DNA of 24,000 nucleotides from Blastococcus xanthinilyticus (GTDB lineage: Bacteria; Actinomycetota; Actinomycetes; Mycobacteriales; Geodermatophilaceae), in assembly GCF_008124835.1 (NCBI RefSeq), contig NZ_VNHW01000007.1:82172-106171 (forward strand), in the 5' to 3' direction. A program made the translations under genes and the position numbers. Of this stretch, positions 162 through 17,039 are shown in pieces. Every line of letters starts with the position of its first letter. The stretch's first letter is position 1. The notes beneath the pieces were generated by a model. The model did no database searches and was not told the origin of the DNA. It saw nothing but the letters and a program-made list of their open reading frames with translations.

Positions 162-264
162 CGGTTCCTGCCCTTATTACTTCGAGGCCGAAGTGTGTGC
201 GGTGTTGATCTCCGGGTAGATGTCCGCGAGAGCGCGCTCCCGCGCGCGGTCGAGGAGGGCAGCC

Positions 265-1254
265 ATGGTCAGCGGGCCGGTACGCGAGGCACGGACGATC
301 CGCCGGGCGGTCGTCACCGGAGGAGCCGGGTTCCTGGGCTCCCACCTGTGCGAGCAGCTGCTCGAGCGGGGGGTGGAGGTGGTGTGCCTCGACAACTTCC
401 TCACCGGCTCGCCGGAGAACGTGCTGCACCTGATGGAGCACCCCGGCTTCCGGCTGGTCCGCTGCGACGTCACCGACTACGTGCACATCCCTGGCCCGGT
501 CGACCTCGTCCTGCACTTCGCCTCGCCGGCCAGCCCCATCGACTACCTGAAGATGCCGATCGAGACCCTCAAGGTCGGCAGCCTGGGCACCCTGCACACG
601 CTCGGCCTGGCCCACGAGAAGGGCGCTCGGTACGTGCTGGCCTCCACGTCGGAGGTCTACGGCGACCCCCTACAGCACCCGCAGACCGAGGAGTACTGGG
701 GCAACGTCAACCCGGTCGGCCCGCGCGGGGTCTACGACGAGGCCAAGCGGTTCAGCGAGGCCATGACCACCGCCTACCGGACGTCGAAGGGCACCGACAC
801 CGGCATCGTGCGGATCTTCAACACCTACGGGCCGCGGATGCGCGCCGACGACGGCCGCGCGATCCCCGCCTTCGTGAGCCAGGCGCTGGAGGGCCGGCCG
901 CTGACCGTCGCCGGCGACGGGTCGCAGACCCGCTCCATCTGCTACGTCGACGACACCGTCGCCGGCATCCTCGCGATGGCGTTCAGCGACCAGCCCGGGC
1001 CGGTGAACATCGGCAACCCCGACGAGCTGTCGATGCTCCGGCTGGCCGAGTGGATCGTCGAGCTGACCGGCTCCGACTCCCCCATCGACTACATCGACCT
1101 CCCGGTCGACGACCCGAAGGTCCGCCGTCCCGACACCACGCGGGCGGAGGAACTGCTGGGCTGGCGGCCGCAGGTGGCCTCCGAGGAAGGCCTGCGCCGC
1201 ACCGTCGCGTGGTTCGCCGCCCAGCGGGAGAGCGTCGCGAGCCAGGCCGTCTGA
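265..1254 (+). CDS. UDP-glucuronate decarboxylase / UDP-xylose synthase-type extended SDR (NAD-dependent epimerase/dehydratase family)
   Basis: The N-terminal Rossmann motif is [21 protein letters not shown]...YDEAKR carries the catalytic S/YxxxK. FNTYGPRM, the DGSQTRSFCYVDD-like segment ([13 protein letters not shown]) and the overall length are typical of UXS enzymes. I chose ATG at 265 because GAGGAGGG lies 6-12 nt upstream. The ORF track start at 220 would add 15 Arg/Ala-rich codons. Confidence 0.88.
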
Positions 1255-1372: not shown

Positions 1373-3004
1373 ATGGGCCGCCACGCCGAAATCACTGCAC
1401 GGCGCCGTCCGGTGCCCACCCTCCTCGTCGCCGTCGGCATCGCCCTGGTGCTCGCCGCCGGAGGCCTCGTCTGGTGGCTGGCCGGGAGCGGTGGGTGCGA
1501 CGAGCGCGTGACCGTCGACGTCACGGTGGCCCCCGAGCTGGGCGAGCTGACCGAGCAGGTCCTGGCCGACGAGATCGTCGTCGAGGACCGCCTCTGCGTC
1601 GACACCGCCGTCGCCACCCAGCAGCCGCTGCAGACCGTCGGTGACCTCTCCGTCCTAGAGCCCGACGCGCTGCCCGACGTCTGGGTGCCCGACTCCTCGC
1701 TCTGGCGGGCCCGCGCCGCGGAAGCCCCCCTCGAGGTCGTCGGCAGCATGGGCGCCTCGCCGGTGGTCCTGGGCACCAGCAGCGATGCCGTGGCGGAGCT
1801 GGGCTGGGCCGAGGAGCCGCCCGGCTGGGGCGAGGCCCTGTCCGGCGGGCAGCCGTTGGCCGTGCCCGACCTGGCCACCAGCGCCGAGGCGCTGGCCGCC
1901 CTGACCGCCGTGTCCACCGCGCTCGGCGGGGGCGAGGAGGCGGGCAACGCCGTCGTCCAGGCCGTGCTCGCCGCGCAGCGGGGGCCGGCACTGTCCGCCG
2001 CCGACGGGCTGGCCGCCGGCCGGGACGGCGGAGCGGACGCGCCGCTGGTGCCGGTCAGCGAGCAGGAGATCTACGCGCTCAACCAGGCCGGCGAGGACTC
2101 CTCGCTGGTCGCCGTCTACCCCGAGCAGGGCAGCCCGGTGCTGGACTACCCGGTGCTCCGCGTCGGGACGCCCGAGGGCGACCAGGCCGAGGCGGTGGCC
2201 GCGGTCGTCGAGGCGCTCACCTCCGACGCCGCCCGCACCGCCGCACTGGAGGCCGGCTTCCGGGACGCCGACGGCACCGCTCCCCCCGAGGCGGAGGCCG
2301 CCGGCATCAGGGCCGCGGCACCCACGACCCTCGAGCTGGACCCGGCCGGGGTGCAGGCGCTGGTGGCACAGCTGAGCAGCCTGGCCGACCCCTCCCGCAT
2401 CCTGACGGTGTTCGACGTCTCGACCTCCATGGAGGCGCCCGTCGGGGACGGCACGCGGGCGACCCTGGCCCGCGACGCGGCGAAGGCGACGCTGTCGCTG
2501 GTGCCCGGCGACTTCGCCCTCGGCCTGTGGGCGTTCGCCTACCAGCTGGACGGCGAGCAGGACTGGTCCGAGCTGGTGCCGATCCGCGAGCTGGACTCCG
2601 TCGTCGACGACACCACCCAGCGCCAGCTCCTCGACGCCCAGCTGGACACCATCCCCGACCTGCTGACCCCCGGCGGCACCGGGCTGTACGACACCACGCT
2701 GGCCGCCGTGCGGGCGGCCCGGGAGAACTACGACCCGACCGCGGTCAACAGCGTCCTGATGGTCACCGACGGCACCAACGAGGACGACGCGGAAGGCATC
2801 TCGCTGGAGAACCTGCTCATCACGCTCTCCGCCGAGGCCGACCCCGACCGGCCGGTCAAGGTCATCGGTGTCGCGCTCGGTCCGGACGCCGACATCAGCG
2901 CCCTGGAGCAGATCGCCGAGGAGACCGGCGGGGAGGCGTACTCCGCCGTCGACGAGAACGACCTGCAGACGGTGCTCTTCGACGCCCTCCGCCAGCGCGG
3001 CTGA
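1373..3004 (+). CDS. Membrane-anchored protein with an extracytoplasmic solute-binding-like domain fused to a C-terminal von Willebrand factor type A (vWA) domain
   Basis: An N-terminal basic stretch is followed by a hydrophobic helix (RRRPVPTLLVAVGIALVLAAGGLVWWL). The central region resembles type 2 periplasmic binding folds (VWVPDSSLW, SPVVLGTS). The C-terminal vWA domain has a MIDAS DxSxS motif (FDVSTSME) and the downstream LMVTDGTNED motif. Confidence 0.82.
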   Translation: MGRHAEITARRRPVPTLLVAVGIALVLAAGGLVWWLAGSGGCDERVTVDVTVAPELGELTEQVLADEIVVEDRLCVDTAVATQQPLQTVGDLSVLEPDALPDVWVPDSSLWRARAAEAPLEVVGSMGASPVVLGTSSDAVAELGWAEEPPGWGEALSGGQPLAVPDLATSAEALAALTAVSTALGGGEEAGNAVVQAVLAAQRGPALSAADGLAAGRDGGADAPLVPVSEQEIYALNQAGEDSSLVAVYPEQGSPVLDYPVLRVGTPEGDQAEAVAAVVEALTSDAARTAALEAGFRDADGTAPPEAEAAGIRAAAPTTLELDPAGVQALVAQLSSLADPSRILTVFDVSTSMEAPVGDGTRATLARDAAKATLSLVPGDFALGLWAFAYQLDGEQDWSELVPIRELDSVVDDTTQRQLLDAQLDTIPDLLTPGGTGLYDTTLAAVRAARENYDPTAVNSVLMVTDGTNEDDAEGISLENLLITLSAEADPDRPVKVIGVALGPDADISALEQIAEETGGEAYSAVDENDLQTVLFDALRQRG

Positions 3005-3012
3005 GAGGGTGC

Positions 3013-3076
3013 ACATTGCGATCCTCCGGATCGCACCGCGGGCTGTGACATTGCGATCCTCCGGATCGCACCGCGG
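3013..3076. repeat. Two perfect tandem copies of a 29-bp unit (ACATTGCGATCCTCCGGATCGCACCGCGG), period 35 bp. Each copy holds an 8-bp-stem hairpin. Likely bidirectional terminators between convergent genes.
   Basis: Copy 1 spans 3013-3041 and copy 2 spans 3048-3076, and they are identical. In each, TGCGATCC / GGATCGCA flank a TCC loop. The repeat lies between the stop of the + strand vWA gene (3004) and the stop of the - strand GT9 gene (3119). Confidence 0.8.
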
Positions 3077-3118: not shown

Positions 3119-4096
3119 CTACGCGGACCCCTCCGGGGCCCACTCGGCCTGACCGTGCACCTGCTCCTCCACCGCCTGGATCACCTCGTCGACAGTGATC
3201 GCCGCCAGCGCCGGGTCCAGCTCGGTGCCCCAGGGATCGCCGGTGCCGTTCCCGTGCCAGAGCACCCGGTGCAGCGGCCCGTGCTCCGCGGGGCGGTGCG
3301 GAGGGCCCCACAGCAGCGGGGACACCGGGCCGAAGAGCACCACCGACGGCCGCCGGTAGGCCGTGGCCAGGTGCGCGACGCCGGTGTCCCCGCACACCAC
3401 CAGGCGTGCGGCGGCGACCACGGCGGCCAGCTCCAGGGACGTCGTCCGGCCGGCCAGCACCGCGGACTCCCCCAGCCCGGCCTGCCCGGCCACCGACCGC
3501 GCCAGCTCCACCTCCGCCGGGCCGCCGGTGATCCGCACGTCGAGCCCGGCGGCGGCCAGGTACCGGGCGACGGCGGCGAACCGCTCCGCCGGCCAGCGCC
3601 GCCCGGGGAACGCCGCGCCCGGGTGGACCACCGCGACGTCGCGCACCGGCGGCGGCACGGGCGGGACGGCGAGATCGAGCTCGTCGGGGTCGGCCGCCAC
3701 GCCCAGCCCCTCGGAGACCAGCCGGCACCAGCGGCGCACCTCGTGCTCGTCCGGGTACCAGGTCGGGCCGGGGTAGCCGGGGCTGGCGAAGGTGAGCAGC
3801 CGCCGCGGGTGCAGGTCGGCCACGACCACGTGCGAGGCCGGGCCCTTGCCGTGCAGGTCGACCGCGAGCTCCGGCGGCGGGCCGGCCCAGTCCAGCGGCT
3901 CGAGCTCCCGGGCGGGCAGCACCTCGTCCACCGCGTCGATCAGCTCGGCGAGGGGGCGCAGCGGCTCCGTCGTCGCCAGCACCAGGCGGTGGTCGGGCAC
4001 GGCCCGCCGCACCGCGCGGATCGCCGGCACTCCGGTGAGCAGGTCGCCCAGGCCGAGCGGACGCAGCACCACCGCCGCCGGCGTGCCGCCACTCAC
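3119..4096 (-). CDS. Glycosyltransferase family 9 (ADP-heptose-dependent heptosyltransferase-like), copy A
   Basis: The N-terminus VVLRPLGLGDLLTGVPAIRAVRRAVPDHRLVL matches the GT9 hallmark (R..alGDvl...P..r.Lr...P). The C-terminal donor-binding motif is CGDTGVAHLATAYRRPSVVLFGP (compare DTGpmHLAaAlg.P.v.lFGP). It has a GTG start at 4096, 22 nt after the hldE stop. Confidence 0.85.
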   Translation of the reverse strand: MSGGTPAAVVLRPLGLGDLLTGVPAIRAVRRAVPDHRLVLATTEPLRPLAELIDAVDEVLPARELEPLDWAGPPPELAVDLHGKGPASHVVVADLHPRRLLTFASPGYPGPTWYPDEHEVRRWCRLVSEGLGVAADPDELDLAVPPVPPPVRDVAVVHPGAAFPGRRWPAERFAAVARYLAAAGLDVRITGGPAEVELARSVAGQAGLGESAVLAGRTTSLELAAVVAAARLVVCGDTGVAHLATAYRRPSVVLFGPVSPLLWGPPHRPAEHGPLHRVLWHGNGTGDPWGTELDPALAAITVDEVIQAVEEQVHGQAEWAPEGSA

Positions 4097-4118
4097 GATG
4101 GTGATGCCGCTGCCGGCG

Positions 4119-5528
4119 TCACACGCGGGAGCGCTCGACCAGCGCGGTGGTCGAGTGGCCGTCCAGGTAGGGCAGCACGACCGCCTGGCCTCCCCAGGAG
4201 CGCAGCACCTCGGCCTCGGGCAGGTCGGCGCCGGCGTAGTCGCCGCCCTTGGCCCACACGTCGGGCCGCAGCCGCTCGAGCACCTGTGCGGGGGTGTCCT
4301 CGCCGAAGACGACGACCGCGTCGACGAACTCCAGCGCCTCCAGCACCCGCGCCCGGTCGGTCGCGGTGACCAGCGGCCGGGACGGGCCCTTGAGCCGGCG
4401 CACCGACTCGTCGGAGTTGATGCACACGATCAGGCAGTCACCCAGCCCGCGGGCCGCCCGCAGCGTGGCCACGTGCCCCGGGTGCAGCAGGTCGAAGCAG
4501 CCCCCGGTGGCGACGACGGTGCCGCCGGCGGCGCGCACCCGGGCGAGGACGGCGTCGGCACCCGGTTTGGCGACGACGTTCGCCTCGTCCGGCTCGGCCG
4601 CGTCCCACGCCGTCGCGCCGCCACGGGCCACGAACGCCGACGCGAAGGCCACGGCGGCGGCCACGGCCTCGCCGGTCACTGCCCCGTCGGCCAGGGCGAG
4701 CGCCGCGGCGGCGGCGAAGGAGTCGCCGGCGCCGCACGGGTCGCCGCCGGTCACCGCGACGGCGGGGACGACCATCGGCGCCCCGGAGCCGTAGGACAGC
4801 AGCGCGCCCCGGGAGCCGATCGTGACCGCGACCGCACCGACACCCCAGTGCCGGATCAGCGCCTCCGCGCGGGCGCCGACGGCCGCCAGGCCGGTGCCCT
4901 CGGCGACCACCCCGGCGGCGGCGGCCACGCGGGCGGCCTCCGCCCCGTTCGGCGTGACCAGCCGGGCGGTCGGCACCGGGTCCGCGCCCCGCGGGTGCGG
5001 GTCCCAGACGACCGGGCCGCGGGCGGCCGCCAGCGCCGTGCGCACGGCCGGATCGGCCGTGGTGCCACGGCCGTAGTCGGCGACCAGCACCGCGGCCGCG
5101 TCGCGGATCGCCGCGGCCGCCTCGGCCGGCAGGTCGCCGAGCTCCGCCACGGGCGCGCCGCTGTCGAGCCGGGCGACCGAGTGGTCGCCCACCCGCACCC
5201 GCTGCTTGACGGCGGTGCCACCCGTCGCCGGGATCTCGATCAGCCGGACCCGGCCGGCGAGCAGGGCGCGCAGCCGGCCGGCGCCCTCGTCGGTGTCCAG
5301 GGGCGCGACGAGCACCACCTCGCGGGAGCCGGCCGCCGCCGCGATCACCGCGGCCAGCGCGGCACCGCCCGGCCGCTCCCGCCGCTCGATGTCCTCCACC
5401 ACCGGCACCGGCGCGTCGGGGGTCAGCCGGGACGCGGAGCCCACCAGGTCGACGTCGAGCAGCGCGTCGCCGACGACGACCAGCGGCCGGGTGGCGGCGC
5501 TCCCGCGCGCCGGACGACGGGCGGTCAC
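4119..5528 (-). CDS. hldE: Bifunctional D-beta-D-heptose 7-phosphate kinase / D-beta-D-heptose 1-phosphate adenylyltransferase
   Basis: The N-terminal pfkB/ribokinase-like domain reads LVVVGDALLDVDL...GGAALAA...GAGDSFAAAAALAL. The C-terminal cytidylyltransferase-like domain reads VVATGGCFDLLHPGHVATLRAARGLGDCLIVCINSDESVRRLKGPSRP. I chose the GTG start at 5528 because it overlaps the gmhA TGA stop (GTGA). The longer 637-aa ORF would run through gmhA in another frame. Confidence 0.9.
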   Translation of the reverse strand: MTARRPARGSAATRPLVVVGDALLDVDLVGSASRLTPDAPVPVVEDIERRERPGGAALAAVIAAAAGSREVVLVAPLDTDEGAGRLRALLAGRVRLIEIPATGGTAVKQRVRVGDHSVARLDSGAPVAELGDLPAEAAAAIRDAAAVLVADYGRGTTADPAVRTALAAARGPVVWDPHPRGADPVPTARLVTPNGAEAARVAAAAGVVAEGTGLAAVGARAEALIRHWGVGAVAVTIGSRGALLSYGSGAPMVVPAVAVTGGDPCGAGDSFAAAAALALADGAVTGEAVAAAVAFASAFVARGGATAWDAAEPDEANVVAKPGADAVLARVRAAGGTVVATGGCFDLLHPGHVATLRAARGLGDCLIVCINSDESVRRLKGPSRPLVTATDRARVLEALEFVDAVVVFGEDTPAQVLERLRPDVWAKGGDYAGADLPEAEVLRSWGGQAVVLPYLDGHSTTALVERSRV

Positions 5529-6223
5529 TTCGCCGCCTCCAGCGAGGGGCCGGAGGGCACCCGCGGGGGCTCGGCGAGCACGGCGGCGTCGAAGGCGGCG
5601 CAGACCAGGTGCAGCGCGACCAGGTGGCACTCCTGCACGGTCGCCGTCCACGGCGAGTCGATGCACACCGCCTCGTCGGCCGCGGCGGCCAGCGGGTTCG
5701 GCGCCGGCCCGGTGACGGCCAGCACGGTGATGCCGCACTCGCGGGCTCGCCGGGCGGCGGCGACGGCGTTGGGCGAGCGACCCGACGTCGACAGCAGGAT
5801 CAGCACGTCGCCGGGCCGGCCGTGGGCCTCCACCTGGCGGGCGAACAGCTCGTCGGCCGGGTAGTCGTTGGCGATCGCGGTGAGCGACGAGGTCTCCGCG
5901 GTGAGGCAGATGGCGGAGAACGGCGGCCGGTCCGCGCGGTAGCGGCCCACCAGCTCGGCGGTGAGGTGCTGGGCCTGGGCGGCGCTGCCCCCGTTGCCGG
6001 CGGCGAGCAGCCGCCCGCGGGACCCACCGCACAGCACGTCGGCCAGCAGCCGGCCCCAGCGGTCGAGCACGGGCACCTGCGCCTCGACCGAGCGCAGCGC
6101 GCTGGTCAGGGAGGCGACGTGGTCGGCGCCGGTCAGGTGCGTGCAGGTGTCGGGGGACACGACCTCGGCGGCGGTGTCCGGGGCCGCACTCATCGGTGCA
6201 CCGCTCATCGGCAGGCTGGTCAT
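5525..6223 (-). CDS. gmhA: D-sedoheptulose 7-phosphate isomerase (SIS domain)
   Basis: LLAAGNGGSAAQAQHLTAELVGRY, TAIANDY and GDVLILLSTSGRSPNAVAAARRARECGITVLAVTG are the canonical GmhA/SIS motifs. ATG at 6223 overlaps the upstream TGA (ATGA). Internal Met codons 5 and 10 residues downstream are possible alternative starts. Confidence 0.9.
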   Translation of the reverse strand: MTSLPMSGAPMSAAPDTAAEVVSPDTCTHLTGADHVASLTSALRSVEAQVPVLDRWGRLLADVLCGGSRGRLLAAGNGGSAAQAQHLTAELVGRYRADRPPFSAICLTAETSSLTAIANDYPADELFARQVEAHGRPGDVLILLSTSGRSPNAVAAARRARECGITVLAVTGPAPNPLAAAADEAVCIDSPWTATVQECHLVALHLVCAAFDAAVLAEPPRVPSGPSLEAAK

Positions 6224-7464
6224 CGGGCGACCTCCACGGGACGACGGCGGGTGAGCACCTGCCGGTAGACGGTTTCGGTGTCGGCCACGACCCGGGCCCA
6301 GCGGTAGCGGGCTCGGGCCCGCTTCACGCCGGCGGCGCCGTAGGCGGCGCGCCGGTCGTCGTCGGCGAGCAGCGCGGCGAGGACCGCGCCCAGCCGCTCG
6401 GGGTCCCGCGGCGGCACCAGGTCACCGGTGACGCCGTCGGCGACGGTGTCCTGCAGCCCGCCGACGGCGGTGGAGACCACCGCCCGCCCGCAGGCCATGG
6501 CCTCCAGCGGGGTGATGCCGAACGGCTCGTACCAGGGCACCGCGAGGACGACGTCGGCCGAGCGCACCCAGGCCGGCACGTCCGCGCGCGCCACCGAGCC
6601 GGCGAAGACCAGCCGGTCGGCCACCCCCGCATCGGCGGCGATGGCCCGCAGCCGGCAGACCTCCGGGTCGGTGTCGATCGCGTCCACCGCGGGGCCGCCG
6701 ACGACCACCAGCTCGGCGTCCGGCACCGCACGCAGCGCCCGCACCGCGTCGTCCTGGCCCTTGCGCTCGACCAGCCGGCCCAGCACCAGCAGCCGCTTCC
6801 GGTCGCTGCGCGGGGCGACCGGCCCGCGCGGGGTGAACACCGCGGTGTCGACGCCGCAGGGCACGATCGAGACCCGGTCCCTGGGCAGACCGAGGCGGCG
6901 CAGCTCGAAGACCTCGTCGGAGCAGGTGGCCACCACGTGGCTCACGTCGCGGCACAGCCCGCGCTCGAGGTCGATCCGCTCGGCCGGGGAGGTGTCGGCA
7001 TCGCCCTGGTGGCGGCGCTTGACCGAGCCGAGGGCGTGGAAGGTCTGCAGCACCGGGACGGGCGCGAGCAGGCTGGCCGAGGCCTCGACCGACGCCAGGC
7101 CGCTCATCCAGAAGTGCGCGTGCACCACGTCGGGGGGCTGCGCGGCCCACCCGTGCCGGAGCACCCGCGCGAACGCCGGCATGTGCTGCAGCAGCTCGTC
7201 CTTGGGCAGCGCCTCGGCCGGACCGGCGGGAACGTGGGCGACGTCGTACCCGTCCTCGGTGGTCACCCGGTCCGGCAGCGCGGCGTCGTCCCGGCGGGTG
7301 TGCACCGTGACCTCGTGGCCGCGGGCGGCGAGCCCGGCGGCCAGGGCCGCGACGTGCACGTTCTGGCCGCCGGCGTCCACGCCGCCGATCGCGGCGAGCG
7401 GGCTGGCGTGCTCGCTGACCAGGTCGATCCGGAGCGGGTACGTGCCCAGCTGGTCGGTCCTCAT
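6220..7464 (-). CDS. GT-B fold glycosyltransferase, family 4 (GT4 / Glycos_transf_1)
   Basis: The N-terminus reads LVSEHASPLAAIGGVDAGGQNVHVAALAAGLAARGH, which is the GT4 N-domain signature. The C-terminal segment PWYEPFGITPLEAMACGRAVVSTAVGGLQDTV carries the EX7E motif. ATG at 7464 overlaps the upstream stop (ATGA). Confidence 0.85.
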   Translation of the reverse strand: MRTDQLGTYPLRIDLVSEHASPLAAIGGVDAGGQNVHVAALAAGLAARGHEVTVHTRRDDAALPDRVTTEDGYDVAHVPAGPAEALPKDELLQHMPAFARVLRHGWAAQPPDVVHAHFWMSGLASVEASASLLAPVPVLQTFHALGSVKRRHQGDADTSPAERIDLERGLCRDVSHVVATCSDEVFELRRLGLPRDRVSIVPCGVDTAVFTPRGPVAPRSDRKRLLVLGRLVERKGQDDAVRALRAVPDAELVVVGGPAVDAIDTDPEVCRLRAIAADAGVADRLVFAGSVARADVPAWVRSADVVLAVPWYEPFGITPLEAMACGRAVVSTAVGGLQDTVADGVTGDLVPPRDPERLGAVLAALLADDDRRAAYGAAGVKRARARYRWARVVADTETVYRQVLTRRRPVEVAR

Positions 7465-8441
7465 CGGGTCACCTCCTCGAGGAGCGCATCCCAGTCGCGC
7501 AGGAAGCGGTCCAGTCCGTAGCGCTCGAGGGCGGCGGCGCGGGCAGCCTTGCCGGCGATCCGCGCGGCCTCCTCGTCGTGCAGGAACTCGCGCACCGCGG
7601 CCCAGAGCCGGTCGGGGCGGGTGGAGACCACGCCGGCCTCGGCGGGCACCGCCTCGACCGCCTCGGTGGTGGCCAGCCCGACCACCGGCAGGCCCAGGTG
7701 CATCGCCTCCAGGAGCGACAGGCCCAGCGAGGTCCAGCGCACCGGGTGCACGTACACGCGGCGGCGGGCCAGCTCCGTGTGCATCGCCGCCTGCGGGGGG
7801 TCGTCGTGCAGCGCGACGCGGTCGGGGTCCAGGCCGTAGGCCTCGTGCAGGCCGGTCAGCCCCATGCCGAACACGTCGACCGGCGCGATCCGCGCGAGCC
7901 CCGGCAGCAGGTCCGCGCCGACCGTGCGGCCCCGGCGCACCGGCTCGTTGGTGACGACCGCGGCGCGGGCCAGCTCGCCGGTGTACCGATCCCCCGGGTC
8001 GACGATGCCGTGCTCGATGACCGTCGTCGGGGCGCGGCCGTTGTCGTAGAACAGCTCGTTGAAGAAGGTGACGTGCGCGATCGGGATGTCGTCCCGGTCG
8101 GCCATCGGGTGCCGGGTGTGCGGAACCGGTCCGTCACCGGGCTCGAGCCCCGGCGCGTTGTGCTCCAGGAACACCGCGGGCAGGTCGCGTCCGGGCTCGC
8201 GACCGAGCCACTCGCGGACCAGCTCGAGGTCGCGCCGGCGCTGCAGCACGACGACGTCGGGCGGGTCGGCGCGCAGCTGCTCGGGGGTCACCTCGCGGGC
8301 CGACGCGGGCCAGTCCCAGGTGCGGGCGCGGCCCAGGCCGTCGGCGTCCCGGGCCGGGGTCACCGGCAGGAGGTACTCGTGCCGCCCCTGGACGAACGCC
8401 GTCGTCCAGGAGCCGTGCACGTGCCAGACCAGGATCTTCAC
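7461..8441 (-). CDS. GT-B fold glycosyltransferase (Glycos_transf_1-like), 326 aa
   Basis: The C-terminal segment HPVRWTSLGLSLLEAMHLGLPVVGLATTEAVEAV resembles the GT1/GT4 donor-binding EX7E region. The protein starts VKILVWHVHGSW. GTG at 8441 is preceded by GGGGAGAAC and overlaps the upstream TGA (GTGA). The 489-aa ORF in the track extends through the upstream GT9 gene and is Arg/Gly junk there. Confidence 0.72.
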   Translation of the reverse strand: MKILVWHVHGSWTTAFVQGRHEYLLPVTPARDADGLGRARTWDWPASAREVTPEQLRADPPDVVVLQRRRDLELVREWLGREPGRDLPAVFLEHNAPGLEPGDGPVPHTRHPMADRDDIPIAHVTFFNELFYDNGRAPTTVIEHGIVDPGDRYTGELARAAVVTNEPVRRGRTVGADLLPGLARIAPVDVFGMGLTGLHEAYGLDPDRVALHDDPPQAAMHTELARRRVYVHPVRWTSLGLSLLEAMHLGLPVVGLATTEAVEAVPAEAGVVSTRPDRLWAAVREFLHDEEAARIAGKAARAAALERYGLDRFLRDWDALLEEVTR

Positions 8442-9529
8442 GTTCTCCCCTGAGAGCTGGTCGCCGCCTCTCGGGCTGCGGCAGGGATGCGGAGAACGGC
8501 CGGCTGCTGGACCGCGCTGGTGAGCTTCTCGACCGCGGCGACGACGTCCTGCGCCGTCACCGAGGTCAGGCAGGGGTGGCCGGGCACGGGGCACTCCCGG
8601 GCCCGGGTGTCGCGGCAGGGTGCGGACTGGTCGCCCAGCAGCACGCTGGGGACGCCGTACGGCGCCCAGCGGACGGCGGGCACCACCGGGGAGAACAGCG
8701 ACACGACCGGCGTGCCGACGGCGGCGGCCAGGTGCGCCGGGCCGGTGTTGCCGACGACGACGGCCACGGCGCCGTCGAGCAGCGCGGCCATCTCCGGCAG
8801 CGAGGTCTCCCCACCGAGGTCCACGCCCCGGGTGCCGGCCACGGCCGCGGTCAGCGCCCGCTCCCCCGGGCCACCGGTGACCAGGACGCGGTGGCCGGCG
8901 TCGGCCAGCGCCTCGACCGCCTCGGCGCACCGCTGCGCCGGCCAGGTGCGCGCGGGCACGGACGCCCCGGGGTGCAGGACGACATAGCCGGGCTCGGTGG
9001 CGGCCGGGTGCGCGACCGGGGGCAGGGGCCGGCGCACCGCGAGCCGGCCGTCGTCACCGGCCGGCGGCTCGAACCCCGCGGCCCGGGCCAGCGAGAGCGC
9101 GCGCTCGGGCTCGGGCAGGTCGTCCTCGACGCGGTGCCGGACGTCGAGCAGCGTGCCGGGGTAGTCGACGCTGATGGCCGAGATCCGGGGCACCCCCGCG
9201 GTGCGCAGCACCAGCGCCAGGGGCAGCGGCGACTGGTGGAACGACGTGGAGATCACCGCCTCGTCGGGCGCGAGGGCCCGCACCCGGTCGGTGAGGGCGG
9301 CGAGGTCGTCGGCGTCGACCGGCGGCGGGTCCCCGAGGATCCACGGGCAGGACCAGGTCCACACCTCGTCGACCCCGGGCAGCAGCGCCGCCGCCGCGGC
9401 GCCGGCCGGGCCGGCGAGGAGGACGACCCGGTCCGCGCCGTGCGCGACGGCGCGGAGCAGCGGGCCCTGCAGCAGCACGTCGCCGGCGTTGTCGAGCCGG
9501 GCGACCAGCACGGTGCGTGGCGTCACCAC
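8438..9529 (-). CDS. Glycosyltransferase family 9 (heptosyltransferase-like), copy B
   Basis: VLVARLDNAGDVLLQGPLLRAVAHGADRVVLL is the GT9 N-motif and VVGNTGPAHLAAAVGTPVVSLFSPV is the GT9 C-motif. The Cys/His segment APCRDTRARECPVPGHPCL is of the kind seen near the C-terminus of many GT9 members. Two adjacent GTG codons sit at 9529 and 9526, and the second gives a GTGA overlap with the upstream stop. Confidence 0.85.
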   Translation of the reverse strand: MVTPRTVLVARLDNAGDVLLQGPLLRAVAHGADRVVLLAGPAGAAAAALLPGVDEVWTWSCPWILGDPPPVDADDLAALTDRVRALAPDEAVISTSFHQSPLPLALVLRTAGVPRISAISVDYPGTLLDVRHRVEDDLPEPERALSLARAAGFEPPAGDDGRLAVRRPLPPVAHPAATEPGYVVLHPGASVPARTWPAQRCAEAVEALADAGHRVLVTGGPGERALTAAVAGTRGVDLGGETSLPEMAALLDGAVAVVVGNTGPAHLAAAVGTPVVSLFSPVVPAVRWAPYGVPSVLLGDQSAPCRDTRARECPVPGHPCLTSVTAQDVVAAVEKLTSAVQQPAVLRIPAAAREAATSSQGRT

Positions 9530-11025
9530 TCACCCGCCAGCACGTCGCCGACCGCGGCGGTCAGCGTCGCCGCCACGCGGGGCGCGGCGTCGACCTCGGA
9601 GTTCCGCGTCACCGGTGTGGGCACCATGATCGCGGTCGCGCCGGCCGCCGCGGCGGCGTCGACGTCGGCAGCGATGTCACCGATGACCACGCAGCGCGCC
9701 GGCTCCACGCCGAGCCCGGCGCAGGCGGCGGTGACCATGCCCGGCGCGGGCTTCCGGCAGTCGCAGGCGTCGTCGGGGCCGTGCGGGCAGAACTGGACGG
9801 TGTCGAAGGGGCCGAGCAGCTCGTCGAGCCGCTTCATGCAGGCGTGCACCTGCTCGGTCGTGATCAGGCCGCGGGCGACGCCGGACTGGTTGCTCACCAC
9901 GCCGACCCGCACCCCGCGGGCGCGCAGCGCGTCGAGCGCCTCCTTCGCGCCGTCGACCGGGCGCACCCAGTCGGGGTCGCCGTTGTAGGGGAAGTCGTGC
10001 ACCAGGGTGCCGTCGCGGTCGAAGAGCACGAGATCGGGCAGCCCCCGCCAGCGGCGGACGCCCACGTGCTGCACCACTCCGCGCAGCCAGTGCCAGGTGG
10101 CCAGCGGCGGGATGAGCGCACTGGTGGCGAGCATGGTCGTGACCTCGGCGCGGTCGCGCGGGCCGGGCGCGATCCGCCGCCAGGCGAACTCGGCGGTGCC
10201 TGCCGCCCAGGTGGCGGCCGCGAGCGCCGCGGCCCCCGGTCGGCGGGCGAGGGCCAGGCCGAGGGCGGCCAGCGCCGCGGCGGTGACGGCGGTGTGCTGC
10301 GGCCGGCGGCCGAGCGGGGCGGCGGCGCGGTGCGGCGCCCGCCAGTCGGGGCCGTGCAGCCGCCGCATGAGGACGTCGTCGGCGTTGCCGGCCTGCACCC
10401 GGACGCTGGTCCAGCGGCCGGTGGGGCGCACCGGGTGGGTGATCCAGCGCTCGCCGCGGACCAGCCGGGCGCCGGTGTCCATGATCCGCAGCGCGAGGTC
10501 GGAGTCCTCGCGGAAGGCGCGCGGGAAGCGCTCGTCGAAGCCGCCGACCGCGGCCAGCGCGCTGCGGCGGTAGGCGAGGTCGGCGGTGATCCAGCTGGAG
10601 GTGGCCAGCCCCGCGGTGCCGCGTTCCCAGTCGGTGGGCCGCCGGTCCTCGGGCAGCGGCACCCGCACCCGGCCCTGGCTGCCGGCGACGTCCGGGCCGA
10701 GGTCGGCGAGGTCCTGCTCCAGCCGCTCGTACCAGTCGGGGTCGGGAACCACGTCGTCGTCGAGGAAGGCGATCCACTCGGTGCGGGCGGTGCGCCAGCC
10801 CAGGTTGCGGGCGCGCGCGGGCCCGCCGCCGCCGGTGCGCACCACGCGGACCGGGGGCAGGCCGGGACGGTCGGGGCGCAGCGGCTCACCCGTGGGCCGG
10901 TCGTCGACGAGGACCAGCTCGGCGGGGCGCGGGCCCGGGGCCGCGGCGAGCGCGTCGAGCAGGACGTCGAGCGAGGGACGCCCGATCGTCGGCACCACGA
11001 CGGAGCACTGCGCGAGCATGATCAC
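9523..11025 (-). CDS. gmhB: Fusion protein with an N-terminal GT2 glycosyltransferase domain, a central hydrophobic linker and a C-terminal D-glycero-D-manno-heptose 1,7-bisphosphate phosphatase (HAD, GmhB-type)
   Basis: GT2 domain: SVVVPTIGRPSLDVLLDAL...ELVLVDDRP...WIAFLDDDVVP (DxD). Linker: hydrophobic runs AVTAAALAALGLALA, AAALAAATWAAGTAEFAW and MLATSALIPPLATW. GmhB domain (last ~169 aa, about 9526-10035): LFDRDGTL, GVVSNQSGVARG, the Zn-loop FCPHGPDDACDCRKPAPGM, and VVIGD. The start is either GTG at 11025 or ATG at 11019 (AGGACGG upstream). Confidence 0.85.
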   Translation of the reverse strand: MIMLAQCSVVVPTIGRPSLDVLLDALAAAPGPRPAELVLVDDRPTGEPLRPDRPGLPPVRVVRTGGGGPARARNLGWRTARTEWIAFLDDDVVPDPDWYERLEQDLADLGPDVAGSQGRVRVPLPEDRRPTDWERGTAGLATSSWITADLAYRRSALAAVGGFDERFPRAFREDSDLALRIMDTGARLVRGERWITHPVRPTGRWTSVRVQAGNADDVLMRRLHGPDWRAPHRAAAPLGRRPQHTAVTAAALAALGLALARRPGAAALAAATWAAGTAEFAWRRIAPGPRDRAEVTTMLATSALIPPLATWHWLRGVVQHVGVRRWRGLPDLVLFDRDGTLVHDFPYNGDPDWVRPVDGAKEALDALRARGVRVGVVSNQSGVARGLITTEQVHACMKRLDELLGPFDTVQFCPHGPDDACDCRKPAPGMVTAACAGLGVEPARCVVIGDIAADVDAAAAAGATAIMVPTPVTRNSEVDAAPRVAATLTAAVGDVLAGEW

Positions 11026-11084
11026 CGTCCTGCCCGTTCTCCTGCGGCCGAAACACTACGGGCTTGAAGTGTCCGGCGTCGCAG

Positions 11085-11264: not shown

Positions 11265-11942
11265 TCAGGCGTCGGCCGGCACCAGGACGGCGACGTCGTC
11301 GGCGAAGGTCAGCGGCGCGCCGGTGCGCCGCTGCAGCTCCTCCCGGTCGAGCCCGGCCACCATGTCCACCACCACGAACCCGTCCGGCCCGACGTCGATG
11401 ACCGCGAGCTCGGTGTAGATCCGGTGCACCACGCGGGCGGCGGTGAGCGGGTAGGTGCACTCCGGCAGCAGCTTGTGCCGGCCGTCCGGGGTGGTGTGCA
11501 TCATCAGCACCAGCACCCGCTTGGCCCCGACGGCGAGGTCCATGGCGCCCCCGACGGCCGGCGGCAGGTTCGAGTCGTCGGTGGCCCAGTTCGCGAGGTC
11601 GCCCTGCTGCGACACCTGGAAGGCGCCCAGCACGGTGACGTCGATGTGTCCGCCGCGCATCATCATGAACGAGTCGGTGTGGTGGAAGTACGAGCCGCCG
11701 GTGAGCAGCGTGACCGGCTGCTTCCCCGCGTTGATCAGCTCCCAGTCCACCTCGTCGGGTGCCGGCGCCGGGCCCATGCCGAGGATGCCGTTCTCGCTGT
11801 GGAAGATGATCTCCTTGTCGGCGGCGACGACGTCGCCGACCAGCGTGGGCATGCCGATGCCGAGGTTCACGTAGGCGCCGTCGGGGATGTCCCGTGCCAC
11901 CCGGGCGGCCATCTGGGTGTGCGACAGCTGAGGACCGCTCAC
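11265..11942 (-). CDS. scoB: Class I CoA-transferase subunit B (3-oxoacid CoA-transferase B-type)
   Basis: IARRVARDIPDGAYVNLGIGMPT-like N-terminus (MAARVARDIPDGAYVNLGIGMPT). FHSENGILGMGP contains the catalytic-Glu SENG motif. GTG at 11942 overlaps the scoA TGA (GTGA). Confidence 0.88.
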   Translation of the reverse strand: MSGPQLSHTQMAARVARDIPDGAYVNLGIGMPTLVGDVVAADKEIIFHSENGILGMGPAPAPDEVDWELINAGKQPVTLLTGGSYFHHTDSFMMMRGGHIDVTVLGAFQVSQQGDLANWATDDSNLPPAVGGAMDLAVGAKRVLVLMMHTTPDGRHKLLPECTYPLTAARVVHRIYTELAVIDVGPDGFVVVDMVAGLDREELQRRTGAPLTFADDVAVLVPADA

Positions 11943-12604
11943 TCCGCCACCTCCACGACGCGGTCGACGAAGATGCCCGGGGTCACGACCGCCTCGGGGT
12001 CGAGGTCGCCCAGCTCCACGAACCCGCGCACCTGCACGACGGTGGTCGTGGCGGCGGTGGCCATGGTCGGGCCGAAGTTCCGGGCCGCCTTGTTGTAGAC
12101 CAGGTTGCCCCAGCGGTCGGCGTGCAGCGCCTTGACCAGGGCCATGTCCCCGCCGAGGGGTTCCTCGAAGACGTGCCGCCGTCCGGCGATCATCCGCACC
12201 TCCTTGCCGCGGGAGAGCAGCGAGTCGGCGCCGGCGGGGGTGAAGAAGCCACCCAGCCCGGCCCCGGCCGCCCGCATGCGCTCGCTCAGCGTGCCCTGGG
12301 GGACGAGCTCGAGCTCGATGTTGCCGGCCCGGTAGAACTCCTCGAACCAGATCGACCCGGCCGACCGCGGGTACGAGCAGATGATCTTCCGGACCCGGTG
12401 CTCCCGGATGAGCGCGGCGACGTCGGTCTCACCGGCGCCGGCGTTGTTGGTGACGATGGTCAGGTCGCGCGCGCCCTGCTCGAGGACGGCGTGCACCAGC
12501 TCCACCGGGACGCCGGCCGCGCCGAAGCCGCCGACCAGGACGGTCGAGCCGTCCGCCAGCCCCTCGACCGCCTCGGCGAGGGACGCCACCCGCTTGTCGA
12601 TCAC
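11939..12604 (-). CDS. scoA: Class I CoA-transferase subunit A (3-oxoacid CoA-transferase A-type)
   Basis: SLAEAVEGLADGSTVLVGGFGAAGVPVELVHAV, ELELVPQGTLSERMRAAGAGLGGFFTP and DRWGNLVY are typical of subunit A of succinyl-CoA:3-oxoacid / 3-oxoadipate CoA-transferases. Confidence 0.88.
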   Translation of the reverse strand: MIDKRVASLAEAVEGLADGSTVLVGGFGAAGVPVELVHAVLEQGARDLTIVTNNAGAGETDVAALIREHRVRKIICSYPRSAGSIWFEEFYRAGNIELELVPQGTLSERMRAAGAGLGGFFTPAGADSLLSRGKEVRMIAGRRHVFEEPLGGDMALVKALHADRWGNLVYNKAARNFGPTMATAATTTVVQVRGFVELGDLDPEAVVTPGIFVDRVVEVAE

Positions 12605-12670
12605 TGCGCCTCCGGACGTCGTCCCGCCGCCGCGCGGGCAGCCGCTCGCGACGGTGTCCGCCGCGTCCGG

Positions 12671-14365
12671 TCAGCCACGGTCGGGCCCCTCGCCCCTCCC
12701 GTGCGCCGTCGACCCGGAGGCCCCGGTGCCGTCGCGCGGTGCGGACCCGGTGCCGTCCTGGGGCGCCGTGGAGACCGCGCCGCCCACCGGCGCCGCCGAC
12801 TCGGCCCCGGGCGATCCCTCGGGCTCCGCGGTCATCCCGGCGGCCGCGAGGTCCTCATCGCCCGGCGTGGCCGGGCGGCTGCGCCCGCGACGCTTACGGA
12901 TGCCCGACACCACGCTGATGAGGATCACCAGCGCCATGAGGGCGAAGATGGTCCCGGACATGGGCCGGGTGAAGAAGGTCGAGAACTCGCCGCCGGAGAG
13001 CAGCATCGATCGGCGGAAATTGGTCTCGAGGATCGAGCCGAGGACGAAGGCGAGCACCAGCGGGCCCGGCTCGAACCCGGTCTTCTTCATCAGCCAGCCG
13101 ATGACGCCGAAGATCAGCACGACCCACATGTCGAACGAGTCGTTGTTGACCGAGAAGACGCCGGCCATCGTGACCATCAGCGCGAAGGCGGCGAGGATCC
13201 CGGACCGCACCCGCAGGAGCTGCACGAACACCCCGACCAGCGGGATGTTCAGCGCCAGCAGCATCAGGTTGCCGATGTACATCGAGGCGATGACGCCCCA
13301 GAAGATCTCGGGCTCCTGGGAGATCAGCTGCGGGCCCGGGGTGATGCCCTGGACCAGCAGTGCGCCGAAGATCAGCGCCAGCACCACGTTCGCCGGGATG
13401 CCGAGGGTGAGCAGCGGGATGAACGCCGAGGTCGACGAGGCGTTGTTCGCCGTCTCGGGCCCGGCGACGCCCTCGATGGCGCCCTTGCCGAACCGGGTCG
13501 GGTCCTTCGCCCGCCGCTTCTCCGTCGCGTAGGAGGCCAGCGAGGAGATGACCCCACCGCCACCGGGCAGCACGCCGATGAAGAAGCCCATCACCGAGCC
13601 GCGTGCGATGGCGCCCGAGGAGTCGCGGAAGTCCTTGCGGCTCGGCCAGATGTTCTTCAGCTTGGTCTTGACCGCCTGGGCCTTCTCGGTCTTCTCGACG
13701 TTGTAGAGGATCTCGCCGACGCCGAACAGCCCCATGGCCACCGCGACGAAGTCGAACCCGTCGAACAGCGCGATCTGCCCGAAGGTGAACCGGGTGGTCC
13801 CGGTGATGTCGTCCTGGCCGACGGTGGCCAGGAACAGGCCCAGGGCCGCCATGCAGAGGCTCTTCACCGGGTGCCGGGTGCCCAGGTAGGTCACCAGCAG
13901 GATGCCGAGAGCGGTGAGCGCCACGTACTCCTGGGAGCCGAACTCGACGGCCAGGTCGGCCAGCGGCGGCGCCAGCAGGGTCAGCCCGATCACGGCGACG
14001 GTGCCGCCGATGAACGAGCCCACCGCGGCGATACCCAGGGCCGGGCCGGCCCGGCCCTGCTTGGCCATCTGGTAGCCGTCGAAGGTGGTGACCACCGACG
14101 CGGCCTCGCCGGGCAACTGCAGCAGCACCGAGGTGATCGTGCCGCCGTACATCGACCCGTAGTAGATGCCGGCCAGCAGGATGACCGCGGTGACCGGCTC
14201 GATCGAGTAGGTCAGCGGCAGCAGCAGGGCGATCGTCGCCGTCGGGCCCAGCCCGGGGAGGACGCCGATGACGGTGCCGATGAGCACGCCGATGAAGACG
14301 TAGAGCAGGTTGGTCGGGTCGAGGGCGACACCGAAGCCCTGACCGATCCCGTCGAGGATGCCCAC
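12671..14365 (-). CDS. tctA: Tripartite tricarboxylate transporter large permease TctA, with a ~75-aa low-complexity C-terminal tail
   Basis: The N-terminus VGILDGIGQGFGVALDPTNLLYVFIGVLIGTVIGVLPGLGP is the canonical TctA start, and the protein is polytopic and hydrophobic throughout. I chose GTG at 14365, 1 nt after the tctB stop. The track's 594-aa form begins with a Cys/Arg-rich non-native extension overlapping tctB. Confidence 0.9.
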   Translation of the reverse strand: MGILDGIGQGFGVALDPTNLLYVFIGVLIGTVIGVLPGLGPTATIALLLPLTYSIEPVTAVILLAGIYYGSMYGGTITSVLLQLPGEAASVVTTFDGYQMAKQGRAGPALGIAAVGSFIGGTVAVIGLTLLAPPLADLAVEFGSQEYVALTALGILLVTYLGTRHPVKSLCMAALGLFLATVGQDDITGTTRFTFGQIALFDGFDFVAVAMGLFGVGEILYNVEKTEKAQAVKTKLKNIWPSRKDFRDSSGAIARGSVMGFFIGVLPGGGGVISSLASYATEKRRAKDPTRFGKGAIEGVAGPETANNASSTSAFIPLLTLGIPANVVLALIFGALLVQGITPGPQLISQEPEIFWGVIASMYIGNLMLLALNIPLVGVFVQLLRVRSGILAAFALMVTMAGVFSVNNDSFDMWVVLIFGVIGWLMKKTGFEPGPLVLAFVLGSILETNFRRSMLLSGGEFSTFFTRPMSGTIFALMALVILISVVSGIRKRRGRSRPATPGDEDLAAAGMTAEPEGSPGAESAAPVGGAVSTAPQDGTGSAPRDGTGASGSTAHGRGEGPDRG

Positions 14366-14366
14366 G

Positions 14367-14819
14367 TCAGCGCCCCGTTCCCGCGAAGAGGATGCCGTCG
14401 GGGAACGGCACGGCCAGCGCCACCTCGAACAGCACGTAGAACAACAGTGCCCCACCGACCGCCAGCGGGACCGCCAGGCGCCACGGCTCCTTGGCGAACA
14501 GCCGCAGCCAGAACAACAGCATGAGCATGGCCGGGACGACGAAGCCGATGATCTCGAACAGCACGATGAAGACCGCGAGACCCGCCAGCCCGCCCACGAT
14601 GCCCAGGGCGCTCCGGGTCCACGGCTCGTAGTCGGCCGGGTCGTCGATGAACAGCAGCAGGACCGCGGTCAGGGTCAACAGGCAGGCGACCAGGAACGGC
14701 CAGAGCCCCGAGCCGGGGGCGCTCAGCTCACCGAGCCCGAGCTCGTACGAGCCGTACATCGCGGCGAGGCCGAGCACCAGCATGACCGCGGGGGCCAGCC
14801 GGTACAGGTGCTTGGACAT
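14367..14819 (-). CDS. tctB: Tripartite tricarboxylate transporter small permease TctB
   Basis: It is a 150-aa protein with four hydrophobic helices, and it has the GLWPF motif region typical of TctB. It sits between tctC and tctA. GAGAGGG lies upstream of the ATG. Confidence 0.8.
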   Translation of the reverse strand: MSKHLYRLAPAVMLVLGLAAMYGSYELGLGELSAPGSGLWPFLVACLLTLTAVLLLFIDDPADYEPWTRSALGIVGGLAGLAVFIVLFEIIGFVVPAMLMLLFWLRLFAKEPWRLAVPLAVGGALLFYVLFEVALAVPFPDGILFAGTGR

Positions 14820-14857
14820 CGGACCCTCTCAGGACGAGGCGGGACGGGGAGGACCGG

Positions 14858-14895
14858 CGTCGTGGGCCCGGCCGCTTCCGGCCGGGCCCACGACG
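14858..14895 (-). other. Perfect 16-bp GC-rich stem-loop between tctC (stop 14900) and tctB (start 14819)
   Basis: CGTCGTGGGCCCGGCC (14858-14873), loop GCTTCC, GGCCGGGCCCACGACG (14880-14895). I verified the arms base by base as exact reverse complements. There is no U-tract. Confidence 0.7.
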
Positions 14896-14899
14896 GGGC

Positions 14900-15898: not shown

Positions 15899-15941
15899 GG
15901 TTCCTCCGGGGTGGTGCGGATCGGTACGGATCGGGCGCAGG

Positions 15942-16919: not shown

Positions 16920-17005
16920 GTGGTTCCCCCAGGAGGTCGGCCGGCGGCGAACGCAGAGGTCAACGGTGACCCGGCCCACGGTCATGTAAGCACAGCACGC
17001 GGGCC

Positions 17006-17023
17006 GCCGACCGGCCGGTCGGC
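17006..17023. promoter_or_regulatory. Perfect 18-bp palindrome GCCGACCGGCCGGTCGGC between the ThDP-enzyme gene and tctC paralog 2 (operator or hairpin)
   Basis: The sequence equals its own reverse complement, checked base by base. It lies 17 nt after the stop of the upstream gene and about 85 nt before the tctC2 start. Confidence 0.5.
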
Positions 17024-17039
17024 AACGATCCGGACTCGA

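Follow-up and report, generated by a model that had tools for sequence, protein, structure and literature searches.

The 24-kb stretch of the Blastococcus xanthinilyticus genome analysed here (contig NZ_VNHW01000007.1, hereafter the window) carries seven co-directional genes that are almost certainly orthologous to the cell wall glycan (cwg) operon of Streptomyces coelicolor. The locus is a reduced Geodermatophilaceae version of this actinobacterial operon, a known kind of locus and not a new system, and what is new in this instance is the distinct reduced architecture and the different regulation. The explanation that best accounts for the whole, to which we give a probability of roughly 60%, is that the cwg-type operon makes ADP-heptose and attaches heptose and other sugars to a component of the envelope. 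A sequence-only reading of the same DNA had put the block forward as a previously undescribed system, which was wrong, as its orthologue was described in 2002.

The S. coelicolor operon (sco6179–6190) was described by Hong, Paget & Buttner in 2002 and later work mapped it as a target of sigma-E (Tran et al. 2019, PMC6767563). Vancomycin induces it via sigma-E (PMC6767563). A transcriptome table equates SCO6180–6188 with cwgB to cwgJ and gives cwgH as a phosphoheptose isomerase and cwgI as a bifunctional synthase/transferase (PMC5839063). The cell-wall-glycan product is only a prediction for S. coelicolor and was still worded as such in 2019 and 2026 (PMC6767563, PMC13011467); the 2026 account describes cwg only as a sigma-E-controlled cell-wall-biosynthesis locus and names no product (PMC13011467). 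Among the open-access papers searched, none contains heptose together with the cwg terms.

The comparison with Blastococcus passes through a Streptomyces locus (L085) that can be equated with cwg because both published promoter sequences are found there. At L085, the cwg sigma-E promoter (CGCAACCTGGTCCCCGTTTTCGT-CGTCTT) has a single mismatch and ends 148 nt before the first gene (147 bp in PMC6767563), and the sco6178 promoter is present on the other strand with two mismatches. The 12 co-directional genes of L085 encode, in order, a short-chain dehydrogenase/reductase (SDR), a carbamoyltransferase, a GT2 glycosyltransferase, a HAD protein, a GT9, a GT4-like enzyme, a GT4, a SIS protein, a PfkB plus CTP_transf protein, a second GT9 and two further GT2 enzymes, and a polysaccharide deacetylase gene (NodB/PgdA-type) stands divergent to them. 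Orthologues of nine of the 12 genes occur in the window, their proteins matching at 52–68% identity (Table 1), with cwgC–cwgJ collinear and in identical order. Both loci have GmhA, HldE, GmhB and a UDP-xylose synthase-like cwgA product as the donor set, and export genes are linked to neither. The genes cwgC and cwgD, separate in S. coelicolor, are fused in Blastococcus, where the cwgA orthologue is convergent and ~2 kb away, behind a von Willebrand factor A (vWA) gene, and where a family-wide 20-nt element replaces the sigma-E promoter. The NodU-like cwgB and the two GT2 genes cwgK and cwgL have no tblastn match in the window and could lie elsewhere in the genome; the divergent deacetylase likewise has no counterpart in the window.

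The sequence-only reading had called for a synteny search, and the block was indeed found across Actinomycetota. In a scan of one genome per species, 326 stretches encode relatives of the GT9 enzyme termed GT9b, and the counts given below derive from the 80 loci that were kept. Gene order across all seven genes is kept, at ~75–94% identity, in 58 loci of Geodermatophilaceae (Blastococcus, Geodermatophilus, Modestobacter, Trujillonella), and the block is complete, at 48–74% identity, in at least 14 of the 21 loci from other orders, which include Nocardia, Amycolatopsis, Nonomuraea, Actinomadura, Nocardioides, Spirillospora, Actinocrinis, Motilibacter and Actinomycetospora. The block shows wide vertical conservation, and its collinearity throughout the family and occurrence in several orders is a housekeeping pattern. 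The earlier view that heptose use in Gram-positive lineages is confined to a few niches is outdated, given a block in hundreds of actinobacterial species and the published nucleoside diphosphate (NDP)-heptose synthetases that are conserved in Actinobacteria (Tang et al. 2022, cited in PMC11573728). Clusters in distant lineages add a NodU-type carbamoyltransferase and a short-chain SDR, and those of Nocardia add a UDP-glucose dehydrogenase and an aldehyde dehydrogenase.

Two side observations concern the Streptomyces loci. Streptomyces sp. 378 (L075, 7390–13500) has a decayed cwg-type cluster with intact genes for GT9b, the GT4-like enzyme and GT9a, two short HldE fragments in opposite orientations, one UXS fragment and neither GmhA nor GT4; it was left out, and L081 and L085 serve as the Streptomyces cwg representatives. 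In the S. coelicolor-clade loci L084 and L085 (17131–18801), a ~640-bp stretch separates cwgI from cwgJ; one gene caller merges this stretch into a 555-aa product with no Pfam hit and another leaves it uncalled; a 225-aa short-chain SDR occupies this position in other orders.

As judged from its predicted enzymes, the operon very probably makes ADP-heptose, most likely ADP-D,D-heptose. GmhA would isomerise sedoheptulose 7-phosphate, the kinase domain of HldE would yield heptose 1,7-bisphosphate and the GmhB domain would take off the 7-phosphate; the D,D form would be the one used because no HldD epimerase is present. All of the domains named in the sequence-only reading (GmhA, HldE, a GmhB domain, two GT9, a GT2, a GT4 and a further GT-B enzyme) were confirmed by Pfam and NCBIfam, with bit scores compared to the curated cut-offs: the GT9 proteins exceed the Pfam cut-off, and the expected GmhA, HldE and GmhB models are the best matches. 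GmhA has a SIS_2 domain, the motifs GNGGS and STSG, and matches to the NCBIfam phosphoheptose isomerase models at E 1.8e-46 and 3.8e-43. HldE matches PRK11316 at E 2.4e-79 and, among structures, Burkholderia HldC (5x9q, E 4.7e-35) and HldA (4e84, 1.1e-15); its translation contains GAGD and HPGH, with HxGH and STT motifs in the nucleotidyltransferase domain, which scores 185.8 bits against the cut-off of 181.5 for rfaE domain II (TIGR02199) and is the only domain of the pathway to exceed its NCBIfam equivalog cut-off. The C-terminal part of the fusion protein is a HAD/GmhB domain with heptose 1,7-bisphosphate 7-phosphatase as its top NCBIfam match (E 7.7e-36), D,D-heptose 1,7-bisphosphate phosphatases as its nearest solved structures (4pnh, E 5.9e-23) and the motifs DRDGT, SNQSG, CPHx6CxCRKP and GDxxxD.

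The nucleotide used to activate heptose may vary among lineages. The specificity motif at the C-terminus of the Blastococcus HldE (4119–4200, minus strand) reads YLDGHSTT, and PMC11573728 gives (F/L)XXGRSTT as a hallmark of NTP-promiscuous NDP-heptose synthetases. At motif position 5, His is typical of Geodermatophilaceae and Tyr occurs in Nocardia and Amycolatopsis, whereas Streptomyces and several others keep the Arg; this "STTR5" Arg is His in most Geodermatophilaceae. From this motif we infer that the HldE of this operon prefers ADP, and different lineages may thus activate heptose with different nucleotides. The actinobacterial NDP-heptose synthetases have the same isomerase, kinase and nucleotidyltransferase domains in a tridomain GmhA-HldE architecture that is reported to be functional (Tang et al. 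2022, Sci China Life Sci 65:1014, summarised in PMC11573728), whereas GmhA and HldE are separate genes with a GTGA overlap in Blastococcus. In-frame GmhA-HldE fusions occur inside the same cluster context in a Trujillonella locus (L034) and in a Propionibacteriales metagenome-assembled genome (L062). An apparent 627-aa fusion in L080 was rejected, its GmhA and HldE parts being in different reading frames, and in the window the open reading frame (ORF) 4119–6032 (637 aa) is a high-GC artefact of the same kind.

Two of the five glycosyltransferases, GT9a and GT9b, share their fold with WaaC, WaaF and WaaQ of the Gram-negative lipopolysaccharide (LPS) inner core, with which the locus also has in common its predicted four-step ADP-heptose pathway and, in GT9a, the GD and DTG motifs. 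Glyco_transf_9 (PF01075) scores 94.6 bits in GT9a and 95.6 bits in GT9b against a gathering threshold of 22. The only structures matched at E ≤ 0.01 are WaaC, WaaF and a Veillonella GT9, with GT9a matching WaaC and WaaF at 1e-11 to 1e-12, but only the C-terminal donor domains align to WaaC/WaaF, and neither protein comes near the NCBIfam equivalog cut-offs for HepI, HepII or HepIII (best scores 76.8 against 185.3 for HepI and 62.4 against 170.2 for HepIII). The locus further differs from the inner-core system in having no HldD, Kdo or lipid A genes, and Geodermatophilaceae are a lineage without outer-membrane LPS. GT9a carries the canonical N-terminal GD and C-terminal DTG motifs as in WaaC, in which we take D13 to be the catalytic Asp of GD and D261 to be the Asp of the sugar-binding DTG motif, a numbering with which the alignment offsets agree. 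GT9b keeps GD but has NTG (residues ~258–270) where GT9a and E. coli WaaC have DTG, and NTG is invariant in 85 GT9b orthologues from several orders, except for one NSG. A change this consistent suggests that donor sugars are bound in a systematically different way; GT9b may bind a different sugar, or heptose in a different manner.

The remaining three transferases are of other types. The GT2 part of the fusion protein (the N-terminal ~330 aa; Glycos_transf_2 66 bits against 23, motif DDD) includes three predicted long alanine-rich helices at residues 238–317, which are the sole membrane-segment candidates among the seven proteins. In an AlphaFold2 model built from a 41-sequence alignment, the helix block has a pLDDT of ~71–95, with a mean of 66.9 overall and values below 50 in the catalytic half, and in a Foldseek search of this model, PDB structures aligned solely to its generic nucleotide-binding N-terminal half (TM-scores 0.23–0.33). 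The cwgF-like enzyme is predicted to be a retaining transferase of the GT4 type whose N-terminal domain is specific to its family: its C-terminal Glycos_transf_1 domain scores 40.5 bits against 26.4, and a profile search against the PDB matched only the donor-binding domain (sucrose-phosphate synthase, TarM and BshA). The GT4 itself has both Glyco_transf_4 and Glycos_transf_1 domains in Pfam and an Ex7E motif.

Outside of the operon, the extended SDR gene at 220–1254 adds to the donor set; neither this gene nor the upstream motif that it shares with the operon featured in the sequence-only reading. This SDR is a UDP-xylose synthase (UXS) because human UXS1 structures match it over its full length (E 1.7e-100, residues 27–339), far ahead of the next family (6e-37). 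As a candidate HldD, it was rejected with a score of 58 bits against a cut-off of 275. UXS is convergent to the operon with the vWA gene in between, and it adjoins the cluster in 12 of the 21 distant loci. The 20-nt element CTTCAAGCCCGTAGTGTTTC occurs once in the window, stands 24–35 nt before the start codon in nearly all Geodermatophilaceae loci, and is nearly invariant (at most one or two substitutions) in 52 of 52 alignable upstream regions of the family, within surrounding DNA that cannot be aligned; it was not found in the loci of other orders. The only other match to it in the window at three mismatches or fewer (0.00 expected by chance) is ACTTCGAGGCCGAAGTGT, part of a palindrome, ACACTTCG-N4-CGAAGTGT, that recurs upstream of UXS in many Geodermatophilaceae loci. 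These two elements suggest a shared candidate operator for one regulator, with UXS probably co-regulated with the operon, and the shared motif adds to the case that UDP-xylose supply and the heptose operon are functionally linked. A leader RNA or riboswitch was rejected, as the CTTCAAGCCCGTAGTGTTTC leader region has no Rfam match and no significant RNA fold (z −1.25), and for the same reasons CTTCAAGCCCGTAGTGTTTC is more likely a DNA site. Also rejected was a sigma-E promoter (AAC-N(14-18)-CGT) upstream of the operon, where the one loose match, at −225, is not kept in related loci.

Taken together, UXS, unlinked but co-regulated, would supply UDP-xylose, and other UDP or GDP sugars would join it and ADP-heptose as donors. 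The five glycosyltransferases (two GT9, two retaining GT4-type and one inverting GT2) would build a short heteroglycan on the cytoplasmic side, with both GT9s using heptose donors, GT9a in the canonical manner and GT9b with an altered sugar-binding motif. This glycan would contain one or two heptoses, a hexose or N-acetylhexosamine and probably xylose. It would grow on a membrane-associated acceptor, and machinery whose genes lie elsewhere would export it. It is likely that the product is a heptose-containing oligosaccharide, while the odds that its destination is an envelope component (a wall-linked glycan or glycolipid) are about even; this destination is favoured because the Streptomyces orthologue belongs to an envelope-stress regulon and has a NodB/PgdA-type deacetylase as a neighbour. 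The sequences themselves establish the domain identities, the operon structure, the orthology to cwg, the wide vertical conservation, the UXS link and the shared motif; enzyme activities, sugar composition, acceptor and destination are inferred from these.

Several observations weigh against this explanation. GmhA (158 against 276 and 147 against 209), the HldE kinase domain (rfaE domain I, 122 against 345) and GmhB (123 against 178) all fall below their NCBIfam equivalog cut-offs. The Geodermatophilaceae loci do not share the sigma-E promoter type of cwg. In none of the lineages examined does the cluster have a linked gene for a priming phosphoglycosyltransferase, flippase, ABC exporter, polymerase or LCP ligase, no recurrent membrane transporter or ligase was found among its neighbours in distant lineages, and a hydropathy scan revealed no clear transmembrane segment in any of the seven proteins. 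To our knowledge, neither heptose nor xylose is part of the wall polymers described for S. coelicolor, a Kdn teichulosonic acid and a diglycosyl-phosphate polymer. A final point of this kind comes from the GT4, for which the nearest PDB entries are 6kih (2.7e-56; deposited as Tll1590), which we take to be the Thermosynechococcus sucrose-phosphate synthase, and MshA (3c48, 2.4e-45), with a score of 208.6 against a cut-off of 462.5 for the MshA model of NCBIfam. These closest solved relatives use soluble sugar-phosphate acceptors, which fits a cytoplasmic product equally well.

The most serious rival is built on this last point. In it, the GT4 would transfer a sugar to a sugar phosphate, perhaps one of heptose, and the product would then be extended and dephosphorylated without ever being exported, in parallel to the sucrose, mycothiol and glucosylglycerate pathways, with a possible role as stress metabolite or storage oligosaccharide. 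This rival must be taken seriously because the cluster has no linked gene for export or priming in any lineage examined and its GT4 resembles sucrose-phosphate synthase and MshA; the lack of linked ligation genes and of clear transmembrane segments points in the same direction. The evidence from individual residues is divided, as the GT4 keeps Lys and Arg at the positions aligned to Lys78 and Arg154, presumably acceptor-phosphate ligands in CgMshA, but has Phe and Ala in place of the presumed ligands Tyr110 and Thr134. The HAD phosphatase fused into the operon would provide for dephosphorylation, yet its zinc loop is specific to GmhB, and the ADP-heptose pathway itself requires this phosphatase. 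Activation of cwgA by salt in S. coelicolor (PMC13011467) would suit a stress metabolite, while five glycosyltransferases (seven in Streptomyces) are many for a compatible solute, and the place of the Streptomyces operon in the envelope-stress regulon, next to the deacetylase gene, speaks for the envelope. On these grounds a soluble cytoplasmic glycoside or oligosaccharide is considered unlikely, and attachment to an envelope component is preferred.

Two further readings are poorly supported. Direct heptosylation of a protein by the GT9s, in the manner of AAH and TibC and with the other transferases extending the protein-linked glycan, would draw on a known use of the donor, ADP-heptose-dependent protein glycosylation (PMC11573728), and most Geodermatophilaceae loci encode a membrane-anchored vWA protein in the interval from UXS to the operon. 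However, the Blastococcus GT9s are not closer to TibC or AAH than to the LPS GT9s, no TibC chain in the PDB was matched by either at E ≤ 0.01, the vWA gene does not accompany the cluster outside of Geodermatophilaceae, and its sequence, read directly, has no repeat or Ser/Thr-rich acceptor region, such that this route is rather improbable. Least probable is a specialised-metabolite cluster for a heptose-bearing natural product like septacidin or hygromycin B, for while ADP-heptose feeds septacidin biosynthesis in Streptomyces (PMC9978623) and the versions in other taxa add carbamoyltransferase and extra SDR genes that resemble tailoring enzymes, the Blastococcus flanks hold primary-metabolism and transport genes and no scaffold-forming enzymes, the block is vertically conserved in several orders, and cwgG (SCO6185), constitutively expressed, is among the most stably expressed genes of S. 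coelicolor (PMC4630627).

The coordinates of the operon, UXS and the two upstream elements are collected in Table 1. GC3 (third-codon-position GC) frame analysis supports the seven genes as genuine in a window of 70–80% GC, with similar values inside the operon and in its flanks. Five of the six gene junctions are 4-nt start/stop overlaps and the remaining one is a 22-nt gap; the seven genes therefore form one tightly coupled operon. A consensus scan of the operon, which is weak in 77% GC DNA, gave no match to internal promoters or terminators. Starts were corrected for HldE, to 5528, where GTGA overlaps the gmhA stop, and for the GT4-like enzyme, to 8441, giving a 326-aa product that is 100% identical to a B. 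xanthinilyticus protein. GT9b may start at 9526, where GTGA would overlap the stop of the gene upstream, and for the fusion protein the ATG at 11019 is conserved in the alignment.

Table 1. Coordinates in the window of the operon genes, UXS and the upstream elements, with cwg orthologues and identities to the L085 proteins.
Feature	Position	Strand	Orthologue	Identity	Remarks
UXS, UDP-glucuronate decarboxylase (UDP-xylose synthase)	220..1254	+	cwgA	65%	
GT9a, GT9 heptosyltransferase-like	3119..4096	-	cwgJ	52%	
HldE, bifunctional heptose-7-phosphate kinase/heptose-1-phosphate adenylyltransferase	4119..5528	-	cwgI	59%	PfkB + CTP_transf_like
GmhA, sedoheptulose-7-phosphate isomerase	5525..6223	-	cwgH	68%	SIS_2 domain
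GT4 retaining glycosyltransferase	6220..7464	-	cwgG	57%	
GT4-like GT-B glycosyltransferase	7461..8441	-	cwgF	66%	
GT9b, GT9 glycosyltransferase	8438..9529	-	cwgE	66%	
GT2-GmhB fusion	9523..11025	-	cwgC + cwgD	60% (GT2 part, cwgC); 61% (GmhB part, cwgD)	probable start ATG at 11019
20-nt element CTTCAAGCCCGTAGTGTTTC	11050..11069	-			~30 nt upstream of the operon's first gene; candidate operator/promoter
Related motif ACTTCGAGGCCGAAGTGT	179..196	+			part of palindrome ACACTTCG-N4-CGAAGTGT, 24 nt upstream of the UXS start codon

Annotation of the flanks bore out the sequence-only reading on what the window lacks: no polyketide synthase, nonribosomal peptide synthetase, lipid A, Kdo, flippase or polymerase genes were found in the 24 kb. 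Priming transferase and ligase genes were not found there either, and the block did not turn out to be part of a known natural-product cluster. Upstream of the operon, the minus strand at 11265–18599 encodes CoA-transferase subunits A and B, the transporter proteins TctA and TctB with two TctC, and a thiamine pyrophosphate enzyme, followed by a MarR regulator gene at 18642–19142. At least the CoA-transferase and TctA genes are found in only 12 of the 58 related loci, so that the block, which looks like an inserted catabolic or transport island, marks the operon boundary. Beyond MarR lie a 351-aa ORF (19181–20236, minus strand) with coding-like GC3 and no Pfam match at E ≤ 0.001, an FMN dehydrogenase and a PASTA-containing penicillin-binding protein.

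On the downstream side, the convergent vWA gene (1373–3004, plus strand) encodes a protein of 543 aa that has a membrane anchor at its N-terminus and matches vWA weakly at its C-terminus, and its identity among Geodermatophilaceae (48–77%) is below that of its neighbours. Between it and GT9a, a segment of ~29 bp, ACATTGCGATCCTCCGGATCGCACCGCGG, occurs twice, 35 bp apart (3013–3076). Each copy contains the 19-nt palindrome TGCGATCCTCCGGATCGCA, with an 8-bp stem and a 3-nt loop, of which the window holds two copies against 0.03 expected; these repeats may be terminator hairpins or a protein-binding site.

For two decades, cwg has served as an envelope-stress reporter in Streptomyces, and the identity of its product is now a more testable question. 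This analysis makes explicit the connection of cwg with the ADP-heptose pathway and a UDP-xylose synthase, identifies an eight-gene minimal core (the seven operon genes and UXS) that survives in Geodermatophilaceae, and adds an invariant NTG variant in one GT9 and the lack of linkage of export and priming genes to the cluster in the lineages examined. Chemistry can be aimed at heptose and xylose, and the minimal cluster is small enough for heterologous reconstitution. It is tempting to propose, at slightly less than even odds, that the product of the cwg-type operon is a glycoconjugate of new structure that contains heptose and xylose and is common to many Actinomycetota, either an envelope core glycan or glycolipid or a cytoplasmic sugar-phosphate heptoside. 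Should this be true, classical cell-wall chemistry would have missed such a glycoconjugate, GT9a and GT9b would be the first heptosyltransferases characterised outside of LPS and autotransporter glycosylation, and GT9b, with its NTG motif, might use a different donor. Abundant soil actinobacteria would then also make ADP-heptose, an ALPK1 agonist, and the prediction that follows is that many non-pathogenic Gram-positive soil bacteria synthesise this agonist of innate immunity.

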